From NCBI GenBank assembly GCA_045535465.1, contig JAZSLS010000035.1:1-49068 (forward strand): a stretch of 49,068 nucleotides of DNA, in the 5' to 3' direction. This DNA comes from Eubacteriales bacterium. Its GTDB lineage: Bacteria > Bacillota > Clostridia > Oscillospirales > CAG-382. Both the position numbers and the translations under genes were made by a program. Positions 1,082-48,392 of this stretch are shown in pieces (the first letter of the stretch is position 1; each line of letters starts with the position of its first letter). The notes under the pieces are model-generated. The model made no database searches. It was not told where the DNA came from and saw only the letters and a program-made list of their open reading frames with translations.

Positions 1082-1113
1082 AAATTAGGAAACAATTCAT
1101 TGTTTCCTAATTT
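1082..1113 (-). terminator. Probable original terminator of the tRNA-Ser gene, displaced by prophage insertion
   Basis: Inverted repeat aaattaggaaacaat / attgtttcctaattt immediately downstream (minus strand) of the att core copy, followed by T-rich sequence on the minus strand. Confidence 0.6.
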
Positions 1114-1116
1114 CTT

Positions 1117-1129
1117 GCGGAGAGAGAGG
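1117..1129. repeat. att core, left copy (GCGGAGAGAGAGG)
   Basis: 12/13 identical to GCGGAGAGGGAGG at 48307-48319, the 3' end of tRNA-Ser; lies about 140 bp from the integrase stop. Confidence 0.88.
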
Positions 1130-1270
1130 CTCTAAGACGAAAAATACCATAGAATACAATAGAATAACAAAACGGCAATTTACGCGCCTTTTGCCGGATA
1201 TTTGGATATTGTAGACTATCATAGACTGCCATATAATACCTGCCTATTCGGGTTTCTTTTTGGGTTCCCG

Positions 1271-2569
1271 CTATTTGGAAGGTTCAAAATTATCAAATTT
1301 CCCCATTTCTTCTACCTTCAACTTGTCTACTATTTTAATATAGGGTTTCATAGCCTTGTAGTCACTATGCCCCGTCCACTTCATTACGACCTCAGCAGGA
1401 ACCCCAAGGCGCAGGGCATTAACAACGAAGGTACGACGGGCGCAGTGGGTAGTAATAACGGCGTACTTCGGTAAAACTTCTTCGTACCGCTGGCTTCCCT
1501 TGAAATATACGATTCTTTGCGGGGTGTCTAAGCCGGCTATTTCCGCCATTACTTTAAGTTGTTCGTTCATTTTGGCGTTACTAATAACCGGCAGGGCCTT
1601 ATCGTTTGGCAGTTCTATATGGCTATACCTTTTGAGGATTGCCCGGCTATACTTGTTAAGTTCAATAATAAGCCCGTCTACGGTTTTTTGCGTTACCACC
1701 TTTATATAGTTTTCCCGAATATCAGACCGGCGGAGCTTAGCAACGTCCGAATAGCGAAGACCGGTAAAGCAGCAGAAGCAAAAGACATCGCGTACAGCCG
1801 AAAGCGCGGTACGCTTGGCCGGAAATTCAAAGTTAAACAGGCTAATAAGTTCTTCCCATTCTAAGTATATTATTTCCTTAGCGTTCCCGTCCACGCCTTT
1901 AAGCCTTGGCTTAAAGTTTTCGTAATCGGTAGAAGGGTTATACCCTTTATTCCACGCCCAGCGCAGGAACCAGCGAAAGAAGGAAAGATACTTAGATATA
2001 GTGGTATTACGTAGGCCTTCTTCCTGCAAGCTTATAACGAAACCTTGTAAAGCTTCTGTATTCAACCCTTCAAAACTTAGGGCCTTGCTATACTTTTGTA
2101 GATGTTCGCGCAGGCTATTAAACTTCGTATAGGTAGCTTTGCTCCAAGCGTTCTGCCTACCCATTGTTTCCATAAATTCAGAATAGGCCCTGTAAAAGGA
2201 AAGGCCGGATTCTTCCGGCTGGGGTTCGGGCTTACGTTTCCCGGTAGCTTCTTCGTAGGCCGCCTTCAATTCTTCGGGAGTTGGGGCGCGGTGTTCCAAA
2301 AGTTCAAAGCGGGTAAAAATTTCGTTTATTCGTTCTTCCGTTTTCAGTATTTCCCTGTTTATTTCGCCGGCGGATTGCCCGAAGCGGTTGCGGGTGTTTA
2401 CCGTTACCCTTTCTTCGGCGGCCTTCCACTTCGCCGGCTCTATACTATACCCTAAGCGGAGTTCTACGCGGTTCCCACCATACGAAACCCTTACACGAAT
2501 AGGCAGGGTTTCGCAAAGAACCCCGTTTACTTTCTTGGGGAATAGCGAAAACTTTATAGCTTTTTTCAT
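1271..2569 (-). CDS. int: Tyrosine recombinase / phage integrase
   Basis: Catalytic signature TGLRYSD (R), TQKT (K), THCARRTF (HxxR), TGHS (H), KPY (Y); Bacteroidetes-type N-terminal arm-binding region. Likely start ATG 2569, overlapping the upstream stop as ATGA; the ORF track extends it to 2605. Confidence 0.95.
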   Translation of the reverse strand: MKKAIKFSLFPKKVNGVLCETLPIRVRVSYGGNRVELRLGYSIEPAKWKAAEERVTVNTRNRFGQSAGEINREILKTEERINEIFTRFELLEHRAPTPEELKAAYEEATGKRKPEPQPEESGLSFYRAYSEFMETMGRQNAWSKATYTKFNSLREHLQKYSKALSFEGLNTEALQGFVISLQEEGLRNTTISKYLSFFRWFLRWAWNKGYNPSTDYENFKPRLKGVDGNAKEIIYLEWEELISLFNFEFPAKRTALSAVRDVFCFCCFTGLRYSDVAKLRRSDIRENYIKVVTQKTVDGLIIELNKYSRAILKRYSHIELPNDKALPVISNAKMNEQLKVMAEIAGLDTPQRIVYFKGSQRYEEVLPKYAVITTHCARRTFVVNALRLGVPAEVVMKWTGHSDYKAMKPYIKIVDKLKVEEMGKFDNFEPSK

Positions 2570-3603: not shown

Positions 3604-3709
3604 GCAAAAATCTGCTGCAAATACTTGCATATTACACTGCTTTGCTATACATTTGCACTCGGTTACTAATACGGTTGCAAAATTAACGCAAAAAATTGCT
3701 TTACGCAAA
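3604..3709. promoter_or_regulatory. Lysis/lysogeny switch region with face-to-face Bacteroidetes-type promoters
   Basis: Rightward -7 element TACATTTG at 3648-3655. Leftward -7 element TAATTTTG (caaaatta 3678-3685) with -33 TTTG (caaa 3706-3709) 20 nt away. GCAA-N4-TTGC-like boxes at 3604, 3617 and 3688. Confidence 0.6.
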
Positions 3710-24352: not shown

Positions 24353-25926
24353 TGAGTAAGAGGACGGAACTAATACAATACTTAGCCAACATAGAACGGA
24401 AGCTAAGCAGCATATACGGCAGCACCTACCGTGCTGTCCTTGAAGTTGCGGACGTACGCAAGTCAATAGAAGCCGGGGTAAACTTTACTTGGGAAGGGAA
24501 CCCAGCGGCAGAAAAGAAGCTTACCCAGCTTCTTAACGACCTAAGCAGCAAAGCGGCCCTTCTTATAGGCAACGGAGTACAGCAGGGCTATAAACGCGGT
24601 GAGGAACACGGAACGCAGGCGGTAGTAGAACGGCTTGGCAAAGGGAAGGCACAAAAGGAAGCGGTAAGAGAGATATGCCAGCAGGCGACCAAGGAGCGAA
24701 GGGAGCAGGGAATGACCGCCCACGCATACGCAACAGCGGAGCGCGGCGGGCTTACCCTTTCTTCCCGCGTTTGGAACCTAACCGGCAATGCAAAGAAGGA
24801 GCTGGAAATAATAATACAAAACGGCATATTAGAGGGTAAAAGCGCAAACGAGATAGCCAGCAGTATAAAGGGCTACCTTAACAACCCTAACGCCCTGTTC
24901 CGGCGCGTACGCAACAAGAAAACGGGGAACTTTGAACTTAGCGAAGCAGCTAAAAAGTACAACCCCGGCCAAGGCGTATATAGGTCGGCATACAAGAACG
25001 CCCTGCGCTTGGTACGGACGGAAATGACTAACGCATACAGGCGCGCGGAGTGGGAAAGTTACCAAAATAACCCGCTTGTAACGAGTTACGAAATTAGGCT
25101 AAGTTCCAACCATACTACTACAACCACCAGCGGCAAAGTAGTACGCCTTGTTGATATTTGCGACAAGCTGGCCGGCGTTTACCCTAAGACGTTCCGGTGG
25201 GAAGGTTGGCATCCTAATTGCCGTTGCGTTATGGTTCCTATTGTTGTAACACCTAAGGACTTCGGGGAATACTTGAAAGCCCGCAGGAAGTCGCGGCAGT
25301 TGGAGTGGAAGCCGAAGACAAGCCAACAGGTAACGGACATTCCGCCGCAGCTTACCGGGTGGATTGAGCAAAACCGCCGGCGTATGTTAGCCGCACCTAA
25401 GAAGCCTTCGTTTATAGAGGATAACAAGGGCGGTATTCAGCTGGCACAGCAGCAGGAGAAAAAAAAGTTACAATTATTTAGCGGAACGCTCCAGCAGTTC
25501 GCCGCCGAGATATTGAAGACAGGGCGAAGTATAGGCAAGGTTTCGCAGGTCGGCAGGATAGACGACGCTATTAAGGCCAATATGGTAGCGAAGGGGCTAA
25601 CCATTGAAACGGAAACTATTATAGTCCTTGATAAGACTGTAATAAAGTACATAGACCACCCGAAGGCGGCCAAGGGCGCAGTAGTACCGGCAGAAAGGTA
25701 CGGGCTAATAGAACAGGCTATTAAAAACCCTTTGCACATTTACGAAGACCTCAATAGCAAAGAACTTGTTTACGTATATACCCACCCATACGAAGAAGGC
25801 AAGCTTATAAAGGTTGTAGTACAACCAAACTACAAGTATAAGGGAGCTACGGCCAACGTAGCGAAGTCTTGGGGCGTTGTAGAAGAAGGACAAATGAACC
25901 ATTCTTACTACCGTAAAATAAAATAG
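24352..25926 (+). CDS. MuF (gpF/SPP1 gp7-like) minor head protein with C-terminal extension, putative BECR-fold nuclease toxin
   Basis: RLVRTEM..AY, CD.LAG.YPK.F.W.GWHPNCRC MuF motifs, then a linker and a ~150-aa compact alpha/beta domain. Confidence 0.8.
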   Translation: MSKRTELIQYLANIERKLSSIYGSTYRAVLEVADVRKSIEAGVNFTWEGNPAAEKKLTQLLNDLSSKAALLIGNGVQQGYKRGEEHGTQAVVERLGKGKAQKEAVREICQQATKERREQGMTAHAYATAERGGLTLSSRVWNLTGNAKKELEIIIQNGILEGKSANEIASSIKGYLNNPNALFRRVRNKKTGNFELSEAAKKYNPGQGVYRSAYKNALRLVRTEMTNAYRRAEWESYQNNPLVTSYEIRLSSNHTTTTTSGKVVRLVDICDKLAGVYPKTFRWEGWHPNCRCVMVPIVVTPKDFGEYLKARRKSRQLEWKPKTSQQVTDIPPQLTGWIEQNRRRMLAAPKKPSFIEDNKGGIQLAQQQEKKKLQLFSGTLQQFAAEILKTGRSIGKVSQVGRIDDAIKANMVAKGLTIETETIIVLDKTVIKYIDHPKAAKGAVVPAERYGLIEQAIKNPLHIYEDLNSKELVYVYTHPYEEGKLIKVVVQPNYKYKGATANVAKSWGVVEEGQMNHSYYRKIK

Positions 25927-25955
25927 GGAAGCTTTACCGGCTCCCCTATTTTATT
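25917..25955 (-). terminator. Intrinsic terminator, probably bidirectional and best formed on the minus strand
   Basis: Minus strand aataaaataggggagc-cggtaaa-gcttccctattttatttt; the stem pairs fully (one G-U) only on the minus strand. Confidence 0.75.
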
Positions 25956-25956
25956 A

Positions 25957-26042
25957 AACCGAGCAAGGCAGGCGACGACCCTGCAATATGTCATCCTAAA
26001 AGGAAGACCCCGCTACCACTTTGCGACCATCAAGCCCGGTTA
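25957..26042 (-). ncRNA. tRNA-Lys(UUU)-like small RNA (cloverleaf mimic, not a canonical tRNA)
   Basis: Closing stem AACCGGGC/GCUCGGUU; D-like arm UCGC-AAAGUGGUA-GCGG; anticodon-like arm GUCUUC-CUUUUAG-GAUGAC; T-like arm GCAGG-GUCGUCG-CCUGC; own promoter and terminator. Confidence 0.7.
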
Positions 26043-26049
26043 TTTGCCA

Positions 26050-26080
26050 CAAAAGTAATAATTCTTTTTTAAGTAACAAA
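26050..26080 (-). promoter_or_regulatory. Consensus Bacteroidetes promoter driving the tRNA-like RNA
   Basis: -33 TTTG (caaa 26077-26080), 19-nt spacer, -7 TACTTTTG (caaaagta 26050-26057). Confidence 0.75.
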
Positions 26081-26218
26081 AATTCTGCCTAAAAAGTTGC
26101 TCTATACCAATAATTTATGCTTAGCTAAACTTAATTTTCCCGAATTTGCGTTTTGTGCCTTCCTTTGGCGCAGCTGGTATAATTATACCACCAAGAAGGA
26201 GAAAACGCGCGGGTCGGG

Positions 26219-26821
26219 CTAATTTTGCCCTTTTTGTAGTTTTGATAGGCGAAGCTTGTAACTTTTGACATCATACGGGACAAAACAATAGAATCCGTTA
26301 GGGCCTAAAACCTTTTCCTCGGCAACGGCGGCGGCGCGTATTGTTTCGGTAAGTTCCGGATATTCCCTTAATGCAGCTTCGGCGCGCTTTTCGTTTTCAG
26401 CAGCAAATACGGATATAGCCTTAGTAATAACCCTTACTTCTTCTTCCGGCTTGCGGTTACGGCGGTAAAGAACCATAAGCCGAGTATATGCGTGGGTGGC
26501 AGGGTACCCAAGGGCTATAACAGCTTCGTATATTGCTACGGCTTCTTCCGTATTGCCTGCCTTTTCCGCTGCTATTCCTTTCCCGTTAAGGTATGCCGTT
26601 CTTTGTAGGTTGTATTCATTCCGGGCGGCGTTCCGGAAGTTTAACCGGGCTTCCTCGGCTTCTTCTTTTGTAAATTCTATATAGTTCCTTCCTTCGCGTT
26701 TATTACGGATATATAAGCTGGAGTATTTAACGGAATTTGGGAACGCGGTAGACATAACCGAAGGGGCAAACATCCACAGGGGAAGGCGTACCTTCTTCCG
26801 GAATAGGTTACTAATTCCCAT
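26219..26821 (-). CDS. Moron gene, TPR-like helical protein
   Basis: NGKGIAAEKAGNTEEAVAIYEAVI...AYTRLMVLYRR...EEEVRVITKAI resembles TPR repeats; opposite strand to the structural genes. Confidence 0.65.
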   Translation of the reverse strand: MGISNLFRKKVRLPLWMFAPSVMSTAFPNSVKYSSLYIRNKREGRNYIEFTKEEAEEARLNFRNAARNEYNLQRTAYLNGKGIAAEKAGNTEEAVAIYEAVIALGYPATHAYTRLMVLYRRNRKPEEEVRVITKAISVFAAENEKRAEAALREYPELTETIRAAAVAEEKVLGPNGFYCFVPYDVKSYKLRLSKLQKGQN

Positions 26822-26825
26822 AGCT

Positions 26826-27230
26826 TTACTTGTTTTTTATAGTTATAAACGAAGGGCGCGCTTCCCACTTGATTAGCGGGCTGGTAAAGACAGGAACAAC
26901 GGTAAGGGTATATTCGCCCGGTTCCCCAGCAGTATAGCGGTAGGCAAAAGGGTAATTATTTGTTTCGCAGAGAAAGGCTCCGTTCAGATAGTAAGCAACC
27001 TCGGAAATATAGGCTTTGTTTTCTTCGTTACAACAAGGATAGAGGTGCAGGTCATACAGGTTCCCGGAAGTAAGAACTTCCAACGCTTCGGGGTCGCCGG
27101 CCCTTGTTTCCGTTTCAGTAAAGAACCCATACAGCGGCTCAGTAATAACGACTTTTTCCGGTTCTTGGCTTGATTGACCGCAGGAGCATAACAGGCAGAC
27201 CCCTAAAAGCCCCAATAAGTAAGACTTCAT
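26826..27230 (-). CDS. Moron lipoprotein (possible Ig-like fold)
   Basis: MKSYLLGLLGVCLLCSC lipoprotein signal from ATG 27230; beta-rich VAYYLNG...YPFAYRY...GEYTLTV. Confidence 0.7.
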   Translation of the reverse strand: MKSYLLGLLGVCLLCSCGQSSQEPEKVVITEPLYGFFTETETRAGDPEALEVLTSGNLYDLHLYPCCNEENKAYISEVAYYLNGAFLCETNNYPFAYRYTAGEPGEYTLTVVPVFTSPLIKWEARPSFITIKNK

Positions 27231-27493: not shown

Positions 27494-27524
27494 CAAAGTT
27501 AGCAAAACATTTGCAGCCTGCAAA
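27494..27524 (-). promoter_or_regulatory. Consensus Bacteroidetes promoter for the moron operon
   Basis: -33 TTTG (caaa 27521-27524), 19-nt spacer, -7 TAACTTTG (caaagtta 27494-27501). Confidence 0.7.
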
Positions 27525-45156: not shown

Positions 45157-45265
45157 AGGAAATTTATAGGGGTAAAGACCTTGCCACTTGGCAAAAAATA
45201 ACACGTTTAACAAGGGTATTAGTAGGAATACCGAAAGTTCCCTTAAAAACCAGCAAAGAAACGCA

Positions 45266-48306: not shown

Positions 48307-48319
48307 GCGGAGAGGGAGG
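48307..48319. repeat. att core, right copy (GCGGAGAGGGAGG), within tRNA-Ser 3' end
   Basis: 12/13 identical to 1117-1129. Confidence 0.88.
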
Positions 48320-48392
48320 GATTCGAACCCCCGGTACCTCTCAGTACGTCGGTTTTCAAGACCGGTGCAATCGACCACTCTGCCACCTCTCC
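48308..48392 (-). tRNA. tRNA-Ser (anticodon TGA)
   Basis: GGAGAGGTGGCAGAGTGGTCGATTGCACCGGTCTTGAAAACCGACGTACTGAGAGGTACCGGGGGTTCGAATCCCTCCCTCTCCG; long variable arm; CCA not encoded; -7 element TACCTTTG at 48446-48439. Confidence 0.96.

Follow-up and report, generated by a model that had tools for sequence, protein, structure and literature searches.

The question raised by this locus is why a gene for a small, tRNA-shaped RNA stands directly against the 3' end of the gene for a MuF-type minor head protein, on the opposite strand and in the slot where an immunity gene would be looked for. The window analysed here, 49,068 nucleotides (nt) long, is the entire contig JAZSLS010000035.1 of assembly GCA_045535465.1, a genome bin labelled Eubacteriales bacterium (2.09 Mb in 162 contigs, 89.6% complete). 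An original prediction, made from the letters alone, had described a promoter, a cloverleaf and an intrinsic terminator on the minus strand from 26080 to 25917, and had proposed that the RNA imitates tRNA-Lys and acts as a decoy or antitoxin for a MuF toxin. The quoted sequence is present as written, with its promoter and its cloverleaf, and the RNA does occupy the slot next to the C-terminal domain of MuF. Our analysis showed that the element belongs to a family of small RNAs, about 81-97 nt long, that had not been catalogued before, and that this RNA is fixed to the 3' end of MuF genes whose products end in a MuF-C/PBECR-like domain, in phages of at least three bacterial groups. From these sequence comparisons we consider it probable that the RNA and the MuF-C domain are cognate partners and that the two travel as one cassette, as a toxin domain and its immunity gene do.

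For the 134 nt from 26050 to 25917, RNAfold gave a minimum free energy (MFE) structure made up of a four-way cloverleaf (26041-25957) and a 16-bp hairpin (25955-25917). The fold energy is -49.8 kcal/mol (z = -3.3), and 1 of 200 shuffled sequences was equally stable. The core begins with one strand of an acceptor-like stem, followed by a linker of 6-7 nt that includes GAUGG, a D-like arm, a third hairpin without an anticodon, the sequence AUAUU and a T-like arm (Table 1). Upstream of it are a TTTG box at -33 and a TACTTTTG box at -7, a two-box layout that we take to be the Bacteroidota promoter consensus, and the promoter ends 9 nt short of the first paired base of the RNA. The pattern TTTG-N18-20-TAnnTTTG occurs three times in the whole window against 0.67 expected, a number reached in 4 of 100 shuffles, and homologues of the RNA have a TAnnTTTG box at the equivalent place. 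A sigma-70 promoter scan made no call at the RNA locus, as expected, because the promoter is of the Bacteroidota type. By these features the RNA gene has a strong promoter of its own, with a predicted start at or just before the acceptor stem. At the other end of the gene, the hairpin covers the MuF stop codon (25924-25926), and in its U-tract the final MuF codons and the stop are read in reverse complement. It is common to both convergent genes; since it overlaps the MuF stop it can serve both of them, and it likely terminates the RNA and, on the opposite strand, MuF. A simple terminator scan did not call this hairpin. Relatives keep the CCCTATTTTATTTT tail, which on the opposite strand reads as the last MuF codons.

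The structure of this RNA is far beyond chance. Two covariance models of the RNA, R1 and R2, were used for the searches. A scan of viral contigs for the invariant RNA core returned 12 contigs, and a scan for the C-terminal domain returned the identical 12; the same core scan of metagenomes gave 58 stretches, which we read as the RNA in 35 cases and as G+C-rich chance matches in 23. In total, 25 distinct variants were recognised. In an alignment of 22 homologues that includes Mu-type relatives (see below) and was fitted to the model, which favours structure, 17 of 19 modelled pairs changed on both sides, all four D-stem pairs among them, and 95.4% of cells pair, compared with 31-49% when the partners are slid. 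The MAFFT alignment A3, with 17 variants, gave 95.0% against 31-53%, and here 9 of 19 pairs are double-changed (7 of 9 in the acceptor-like stem and 2 of 5 in the T stem). When 26 variants were folded singly, about 15 gave a cloverleaf with acceptor, D-like, third and T-like arms at the MFE, and most of the rest keep the acceptor-like and T-like arms but have the D-like or the third arm drawn differently; for three (L073, L167 and L193) the MFE structure is entirely different.

Constant in the family are a D arm with GG in its loop, the GAUGG linker, AUAUU ahead of the T arm, and a T stem of 5 bp closing a loop of 7 nt, and the four-arm cloverleaf with these D and T arms is found both by MFE folding and by covariation. 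With D-like and T-like arms of this kind the “elbow” of a tRNA can, in principle, form. The T-loop that the original prediction found odd, GUCGUCG, is indeed that of the window, but it is a peculiarity confined to the gut-phage group and a derived state; the canonical UUCAACU, UUCGACU or UUCGAUU is found in L003, L103, L123 and the Mu-type lineage. Other features are not those of a tRNA: the linker from acceptor to D arm is 5-7 nt long (2 in tRNA), 1-3 nt lie between the T stem and the acceptor (none in tRNA), the acceptor-like stem has 7-11 bp, and no CCA is encoded. The third arm is a hairpin with a loop of 3-7 nt whose sequence is unrelated from lineage to lineage (UUU/UUUUA, CAA, UCAAA, AUUU, GAAA, AUA, UUAU, GCAA, UUA and others), with no 7-nt loop of the anticodon kind on a 5-bp stem; a mismatch at its fourth pair is frequent in the Bacteroidota-type group. 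The only other matches to R1 in the genome of the window were a true tRNA-Pro (31.5 bits) and a true tRNA-Leu (21.7 bits). Because the model picks up real tRNAs, the family looks tRNA-derived. Rfam assigned the window cloverleaf to no known family at the gathering score or at E ≤ 10, and the relatives also had no family match, only their T arm resembling tmRNA at 16-18 bits; tmRNA was rejected as an identity, the T arm alone being similar.

The distribution of the RNA follows the C-terminal domain. Among 67 relatives of the window-type MuF, 59 match only to about residue 362, meaning that the C-terminus varies. On viral contigs, the RNA is found at 8 of 8 loci where the match extends to residue 524, on the opposite strand and just past the stop, and at none of the 59 where it goes no further than residue 362 (R1, E ≤ 1); 20 of these were re-searched with R2, again with no hit. 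Genome contigs found through the domain carried the RNA in 3 of 3 cases, and of the 38 RNA-bearing metagenome and genome loci, 27 have the domain convergent to it about 100 nt away. In the window lineage the RNA is convergent to the MuF 3' end and 25-31 nt off it. One relative whose domain is 29% identical (L095) had no RNA match in the 187 nt of downstream sequence covered, a stretch too short to be informative. With both MuF types counted, the RNA was detected beside 0 of 66 sister MuFs with other C-termini. There is no open reading frame (ORF) between the MuF stop and the RNA, no conserved protein gene adjoins the domain, and the protein genes beyond the RNA differ among lineages, so that a protein gene in the role of an immunity gene was not found.

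The same pairing was found in a second type of MuF, distant from the SPP1-gp7-like MuF of the gut phages that have Bacteroidota-type promoters. A looser pattern scan for the RNA brought up locus L161, whose MuF is of the Mu-F Pfam type; its similarity to the window MuF is limited to the C-terminal domain (30% identity, E = 7e-5), and the RNA is present. Of 24 relatives of the L161 MuF, 15 have the RNA by R1 and two more by R2, which makes 17 of 17 among those matching to at least residue 391; it is beside none of the seven that match only the N-terminal 212 residues or fewer. At 12 of 14 Mu-type loci measured, the 3' acceptor strand of the RNA overlaps the MuF stop by 3-14 nt, and the remaining two have a gap of 4 nt (L193) or of 1,090 nt, behind an inserted cassette (L167). 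The Mu-type promoter consists of a -35 box of the TTGACA type and a -10 box, TATAAT, preceded by TG, and it ends 7-9 nt before the acceptor stem. In tblastn searches, the L161 lineage falls among Mu-like phages of Campylobacter and Helicobacter. Among named phages, the RNA was detected with R2 in Campylobacter phage CAM-P21 (49.5 bits, in the space separating MuF from the gene that follows), in a Helicobacter apodemus prophage (58 bits) and, with filters off, in Pasteurella phage Pmp9 (24.7 bits). Phage Mu itself has no RNA by R2 and no gap after MuF, and its C-terminus lacks the histidine motif described below. The comparison that had been proposed as a check thus turned out as predicted: a covarying cloverleaf stands beside homologous C-terminal domains in distant phages, and none was detected beside other C-termini.

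Table 1. Positions of the features discussed; entries without a locus name refer to the window.
Feature	Position	Strand	Basis or remark
MuF-type minor head protein, 524 aa	24352..25926	+	phrog_35295 (1.3e-73) and other head-morphogenesis PHROGs, aa 11-388
MuF C-terminal domain, aa 395-524, MuF-C/PBECR-like	25534..25923	+	profile search, weak Pfam likeness
Promoter of RNA gene, Bacteroidota type	26050..26080	-	-33 TTTG at 26080-26077; -7 TACTTTTG at 26057-26050
tRNA-shaped RNA core, 85 nt	25957..26041	-	MFE fold, covariation, model R1 score 104.1 bits
Acceptor-like stem	26041-26034 paired with 25964-25957	-	
D-like arm	26026-26010	-	
Third hairpin, anticodon-less	26008-25990	-	
AUAUU	25989-25985	-	
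T-like arm	25984-25968	-	
Hairpin, putative terminator	25917..25955	-	16 bp in MFE fold; A-tract before, U-tract after
TPR-like gene, 200 aa	26219..26821	-	TPR_16 E = 1.3e-4, below cut-off
Remaining exact TTTG-N18-20-TAnnTTTG matches	3678-3709; 27494-27524	-	
RT-17 RNA	45177-45260	+	Rfam, 42.1 bits (gathering score 40.4)
tRNA-Ser(UGA)	48307-48392	-	Rfam, 56.1 bits
CRISPR-side RNA loci	L103:1-1660; L124:28-2501; L152:39-4000; L123:1-111 and 1105-1775		
AT-rich cassette between MuF and RNA	L161:4975-6162		
Annotated coding sequence over RNA, CAM-P21	L191:3745-3837	opposite to RNA	hypothetical, 30 aa
Annotated hypothetical protein, B3	L196:2692-2790		in MuF-to-G gap
Extra ~75-nt element between promoter and RNA	L120:4878-4956; L121; L143:6363-6440		long hairpin
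Run of small units upstream of RNA	L072:12170-12600; also L082	- (L072)	repeated TTTGATCTATCTTTG-type promoter
Second tRNA-shaped paralogue	L072:12470-12566		R1 22.7 bits, own terminator

Some details of the neighbourhood can be added here. Upstream of the window RNA, on the same strand, are a TPR-like gene and a gene for a 137-aa protein. Homologues of the TPR-like gene were seen only on a near-identical contig and on one other contig without the RNA, and the genes upstream of the RNA vary from lineage to lineage; judged by this distribution, the TPR-like gene merely adjoins the RNA-MuF unit and does not belong to its conserved parts. The cassette of L161, 1.08 kb long and AT-rich, lies between MuF and the RNA, contains ORFs of 77 and 148 aa without a family match, and has on either side a copy of a direct repeat, about 100 nt long and composed of the RNA 3' half and the MuF 3' end. 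It looks like the product of integration or recombination at a tRNA-like gene. In CAM-P21 an annotated hypothetical coding sequence covers the 5' three quarters of the RNA on the opposite strand and is probably not a gene; in B3 a hypothetical protein is annotated in the gap between MuF and G, where no RNA was detected (the annotations are 30-32 aa across the two phages).

To judge what the RNA may do, the nature of its partner domain has to be considered. The window MuF gene stands in the order terminase, SPP1-type portal, a 149-aa protein, MuF and capsid genes, and its N-terminal part is recognised as a MuF domain by PHROGs, as it is in Mu-type relatives by Pfam (Phage_Mu_F). A Pfam search with the whole window MuF gave nothing at E ≤ 0.01, the last ~130 residues included, and the C-terminal domain alone reached PBECR2 at E = 0.13 (12.9 bits against a cut-off of 27.1). 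Among 30 relatives of the domain that were scanned, Pfam MuF_C was matched by six, PBECR3 by two and PBECR2 by one, with best E-values from 9.7e-07 to 0.0044; the four such hits with bit scores are all below the cut-offs (for example 21.1 and 16.6 against 27.6 for MuF_C and 23 against 30 for PBECR3). We treat this likeness to the PBECR and MuF_C families (PF18810, PF18812 and PF18819) as a lead and not as membership. Searching 1.84 billion proteins with a profile of the domain built from nine sequences gave 101 representative clusters; many are stand-alone proteins of some 165 aa, and others lie at the end of MuF proteins of 344-569 aa. All 13 RNA-linked proteins in the alignment keep a histidine and the basic residues that follow it, a motif that Mu gp30 lacks and that B3 and Ralstonia phage YO088_1 have. 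An AlphaFold2 model of the domain is alpha/beta with four C-terminal strands (pLDDT 95.5). A RelE-type toxin chain at rank 33 of a Foldseek search (E = 1.4) was set aside as not being evidence. GenBank phages had no match to the C-terminal domain or to its stand-alone relative P0007, and the domain profile A4 found nothing in 400 genomes of the phylum. The domain is predicted to be an RNase or RNA-binding domain. Iyer et al. 2017 describe a MuF-PBECR fusion, delivery in the virion, a copy in Mu that is inactive, and tRNA, mRNA or crRNA as possible targets, and regard the MuF-C/PBECR type as native to MuF.

In sister MuFs of the window type (L011, L032, L036 and L042, with L048, L051 and L056), the C-terminus is instead an ART domain (26.9 bits, cut-off 22.3), an M90-peptidase-like domain (26.8 bits, cut-off 26.2) or LPD3 (41.6 bits, cut-off 27), or there is no extension at all (387 aa). 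The MuF effectors of the window phage group are therefore polymorphic, comparable with Bxa in prophages of Bacteroides.

If this cognate partnership holds, the most likely mode of action of the RNA, which we put forward tentatively and with more doubt than confidence, is that of a tRNA-shaped inhibitor resistant to cleavage, which would amount to immunity conferred by an RNA. The target would be an RNase-like domain of a kind that, according to Iyer et al. 2017, often cuts tRNA or rRNA. The RNA would present the body of a tRNA, with elbow and acceptor stem, while a closed hairpin replaces the anticodon loop that could be cut, and it would bind and block the domain as a pseudo-substrate that cannot be cleaved. 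Made from its own promoter, it might in this way protect the lysogen or the producing cell, and “orphan” copies in chromosomes beside CRISPR arrays could protect their hosts from a virion-borne RNase. A wider version of this proposal, doubtful as a whole, is that of a new kind of immunity, in which an anticodon-less tRNA-body RNA would neutralise the RNase of a virion protein, the cassette of RNA and domain would move among unrelated phages of Bacteroidota, Campylobacterota and Pasteurellaceae, and bacteria would have captured orphans at CRISPR arrays to disarm the injected enzyme. Were this true, the RNase would attack tRNA-like or CRISPR-linked RNA early in infection.

A number of observations weigh against a partnership of RNA and domain, or at least against its simplest form. 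Expression has a weak hint in its favour: metatranscriptome contigs of one study cover 25806-26038, one of them ending at 26038, 3 nt from the predicted 5' end, and one contig of a second study covers the region from 25744, but these contigs have a depth of 2-5, are strandless and could derive from DNA carry-over; none covers 26044-26350, a gap to which we attach no weight. The assignment of the domain as an RNase rests on weak Pfam hits and the conserved histidine, and Foldseek found no PDB structure similar to the domain model at E ≤ 0.001 (best E = 0.37). Pseudomonas phage B3 and Ralstonia phage YO088_1 have a related domain with the histidine motif and yet no RNA by R2, and their gaps, when folded, gave no cloverleaf. 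Conversely, L143 and L146 keep promoter and RNA (about 95% identity) beside a MuF with a different C-terminus; in these two the segment from the RNA 3' end to about residue 362 of MuF has been replaced, and a 74-aa ORF without a family match lies between. Six contigs of one lineage (L103, L124, L148, L145, L152 and L155) have an intact, CRISPR-adjacent RNA scoring 77 bits, and on a further contig, L123, 47-nt type II-C-like repeats leave a gap of about 1 kb that contains the RNA (68 bits) and a divergent phage-type ORF (phrog_35741). No homologue of MuF or of MuF-C was found in the available sequence of the L103-type contigs and L123. These exceptions weaken a strict toxin-antitoxin reading. 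Moreover, because the RNA and the MuF 3' end adjoin or overlap, a swap of the C-terminus by recombination would carry the RNA along, and within a lineage the co-occurrence may be mere linkage.

At the L103-type loci, an array of 30-nt CRISPR repeats starts about 65 nt past the RNA terminator, and the spacers adjoining the RNA differ between two strain groups. Rfam DR models match the arrays on the same strand as the RNA; the repeat end, ATTGAAAT, suggests the opposite orientation for the 30-nt array under the rule that we presume to apply. These CRISPR-side copies hint at a tie between the RNA and host defence.

The alternative that survives best, although we consider it unlikely, is that the RNA is a cofactor or cargo of MuF, bound for head assembly, packaging or ejection, and perhaps either carried in the virion and delivered with the DNA or processed by the domain into an active fragment. 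It accounts for the same co-occurrence data as a cognate inhibitor does, MuF is a virion protein by its PHROG annotation, and Iyer et al. 2017 predict that the inactive MuF-C of phage Mu binds RNA, besides the virion delivery of MuF-PBECR already mentioned. It is harder to reconcile with phages Mu, B3 and the Ralstonia phage, which do without a detectable RNA, and with the chromosomal copies that have no MuF; an opposite-strand gene under a promoter of its own also resembles a moron or an immunity gene more than a late structural component.

Quite unlikely, in our judgement, is an RNA that is cargo in its own right, a tRNA-body decoy or sponge against a host tRNA-targeting nuclease, a tRNA-modifying or tRNA-processing enzyme or the CRISPR machinery, for which the slot behind MuF merely tolerates insertions. 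Such an RNA would explain why the swap of the C-terminus in L143 and L146 left it in place and why its relatives stand beside two different kinds of CRISPR array without a MuF. The slot also behaves as an insertion hot spot, with variable upstream genes, the 1.08-kb cassette, and the small RNA units and paralogue of L072 described below. Against this, the pairing recurs in MuF types that share the C-terminal domain only, in phages of quite different gene order, the Mu-type RNA overlaps the MuF stop at 12 of the 14 loci measured, and it was detected beside none of the 66 sister MuFs with other C-termini.

The overlap of the RNA 3' end or its terminator with the MuF stop across lineages (the Mu-type count again being 12 of 14) could also mean that the element acts mainly in cis, either as a convergent unit that damps or terminates transcripts of MuF and the late operon or as a DNA anchor for the exchange of cassettes, its tRNA shape serving only to stabilise the RNA. 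The break-points of recombination coincide exactly with the RNA 5' end in L120 and L121 and with its 3' end in L143 and L146, and the direct repeat of L161 includes the RNA 3' half, both of which would suit an anchor. We nevertheless regard a role in cis as improbable, since it leaves the conserved D-loop GG, the T-loop, the invariant GAUGG linker and the compensatory changes in all four helices unexplained, as well as the intact copies of the RNA away from any MuF gene.

The original prediction had favoured imitation of tRNA-Lys(UUU), with the RNA as a decoy for a nuclease that cuts this tRNA, be it the MuF toxin or PrrC. The hairpin of the window, taken alone, can be drawn with a 7-nt loop CUUUUAG, but in the MFE fold U and A form a closing pair that leaves a loop of 3 nt, and in homologues with the other arms conserved the loop is different in every lineage, no 7-nt anticodon-like loop being kept. 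Judging from the homologues, the likeness to tRNA-Lys is an accident of the window variant, and this explanation is very improbable. The expectation that tRNA scanners would miss the RNA was borne out: ARAGORN did not call it, its sole call in the window being the tRNA-Ser of Table 1. A working, decoding tRNA of unusual shape is almost certainly not what the RNA is, for while R1 scores real tRNAs weakly and ARAGORN forces L167 into a doubtful 92-nt “tRNA-Ala”, the arm geometry set out above is not that of a tRNA, ARAGORN called 0 of 15 other relatives, and the Rfam tRNA model (RF00005) had no match in the window region at E ≤ 10 and none in the relatives at E ≤ 1. The same arm geometry ruled out selenocysteine tRNA and other odd tRNAs.

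If a cognate inhibitor of the domain is indeed encoded here, the arrangement resembles type III toxin-antitoxin systems such as ToxIN, in which an RNase is neutralised through direct binding by an adjacent small structured RNA on a phage or mobile element. There the antitoxin consists of tandem repeats, placed upstream and co-transcribed, whereas the RNA described here is a single tRNA-shaped unit, convergent on the opposite strand with its own promoter, and the candidate “toxin” is the C-terminal domain of a virion protein. It was this single convergent unit, and not a tandem-repeat RNA upstream, that was found at the locus. A second likeness is to the polymorphic MuF toxins (Jamet et al. 2017; Bxa/Bsi/BAH, Alexei et al. 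2024), which combine a MuF N-terminus with interchangeable C-terminal effectors and lead one to expect a protective gene alongside. Those toxins use protein immunity, whereas no conserved ORF follows the C-terminus here and the only conserved neighbour is the RNA gene; the domain, of the MuF-C/PBECR type held by Iyer et al. 2017 to be native to MuF, is also not obviously an imported toxin. A tRNA-shaped RNA in a conflict between phage and host is likewise seen in phage tRNAs that counter anticodon nucleases and in the complex of AcrIIIA1 with tRNA fragments (Nucleic Acids Res 2024); these are real tRNAs or pieces of host tRNAs, in contrast to the dedicated non-decoding RNA gene described here.

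Small RNAs derived from the tRNA shape are well established in other settings. YrlA Y-RNA-like RNAs, the tRNA-like domain of tmRNA and the T4 stable RNAs C and D keep the elbow and an acceptor-like stem and have lost decoding, and some of them are phage-encoded. The RNA of the window likewise keeps elbow and acceptor-like stem without decoding; it differs in that it ends in the acceptor stem, its anticodon arm is a closed hairpin and Rfam has no match for it. YrlA, by contrast, ends in a Ro-binding stem, with the acceptor closed by a loop, and the absence of an Rfam match and the terminal acceptor-like stem set the window family apart from YrlA and other Y RNA-like RNAs. To our knowledge, a fixed position against MuF is not known for YrlA, tmRNA or the T4 stable RNAs. 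We place the RNA with known kinds, namely tRNA-like small RNAs and, putatively, RNA antitoxins, while the family itself is new. Our full-text search of the literature found no description of a tRNA-like RNA beside MuF, and a term search of the main text of the Campylobacter transcriptome paper of Dugar et al. 2013 found no mention of such an RNA.

MuF is a widespread phage head protein, and with an RNA gene tied to it the C-terminal RNase-like domain acquires a definite partner that experiments can address. Should the RNA prove to inhibit the domain, RNA immunity for a polymorphic effector delivered by the virion would be known for the first time, and RNA antitoxins would gain a new architecture. 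Whatever its function, the family is missed by tRNA scanners and Rfam, and a covariance model for it would improve the annotation of phages. Cultured systems that carry the RNA are available in a Campylobacter Mu-like phage and a Pasteurella phage.

The slot held further small elements. In L120, L121 and L143 an extra element of about 75 nt lies between promoter and RNA and forms a long hairpin in which L120 and L143 differ by compensatory changes, a sign that the transcript may have two parts and be cut at the tRNA-like unit. Upstream of the RNA in L072, and also in L082, there is a run of small units, each with a repeated TTTGATCTATCTTTG-type promoter, and L072 contains a second tRNA-shaped paralogue with its own terminator.

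As for the host of the window phage, a search with R1 found the RNA in none of 150 genomes of the same order as the window bin, and a DNA search found it in none of 60 genomes of relatives; GenBank phages had no DNA or protein similar to window positions 25700-26900. Near-identical phage fragments stand in differently labelled bins, namely uncultured Clostridia (L096), Tannerella sp. (L097) and Bacteroidales (L098). Because of these fragments and the negative result in the 150 genomes, the assignment of a host by binning is doubtful, and the promoter type points to Bacteroidota as the probable host group.

Two catalogued RNAs lie toward one end of the window (Table 1). The tRNA-Ser(UGA), near the contig end, could be a phage tRNA or an attachment site. 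A tie between the tRNA-shaped RNA and the RT-17 RNA was considered and rejected, as relatives show no such link. The RT-17 motif is linked to reverse-transcriptase genes, and its presence points to a retroelement close to the phage contig's end.

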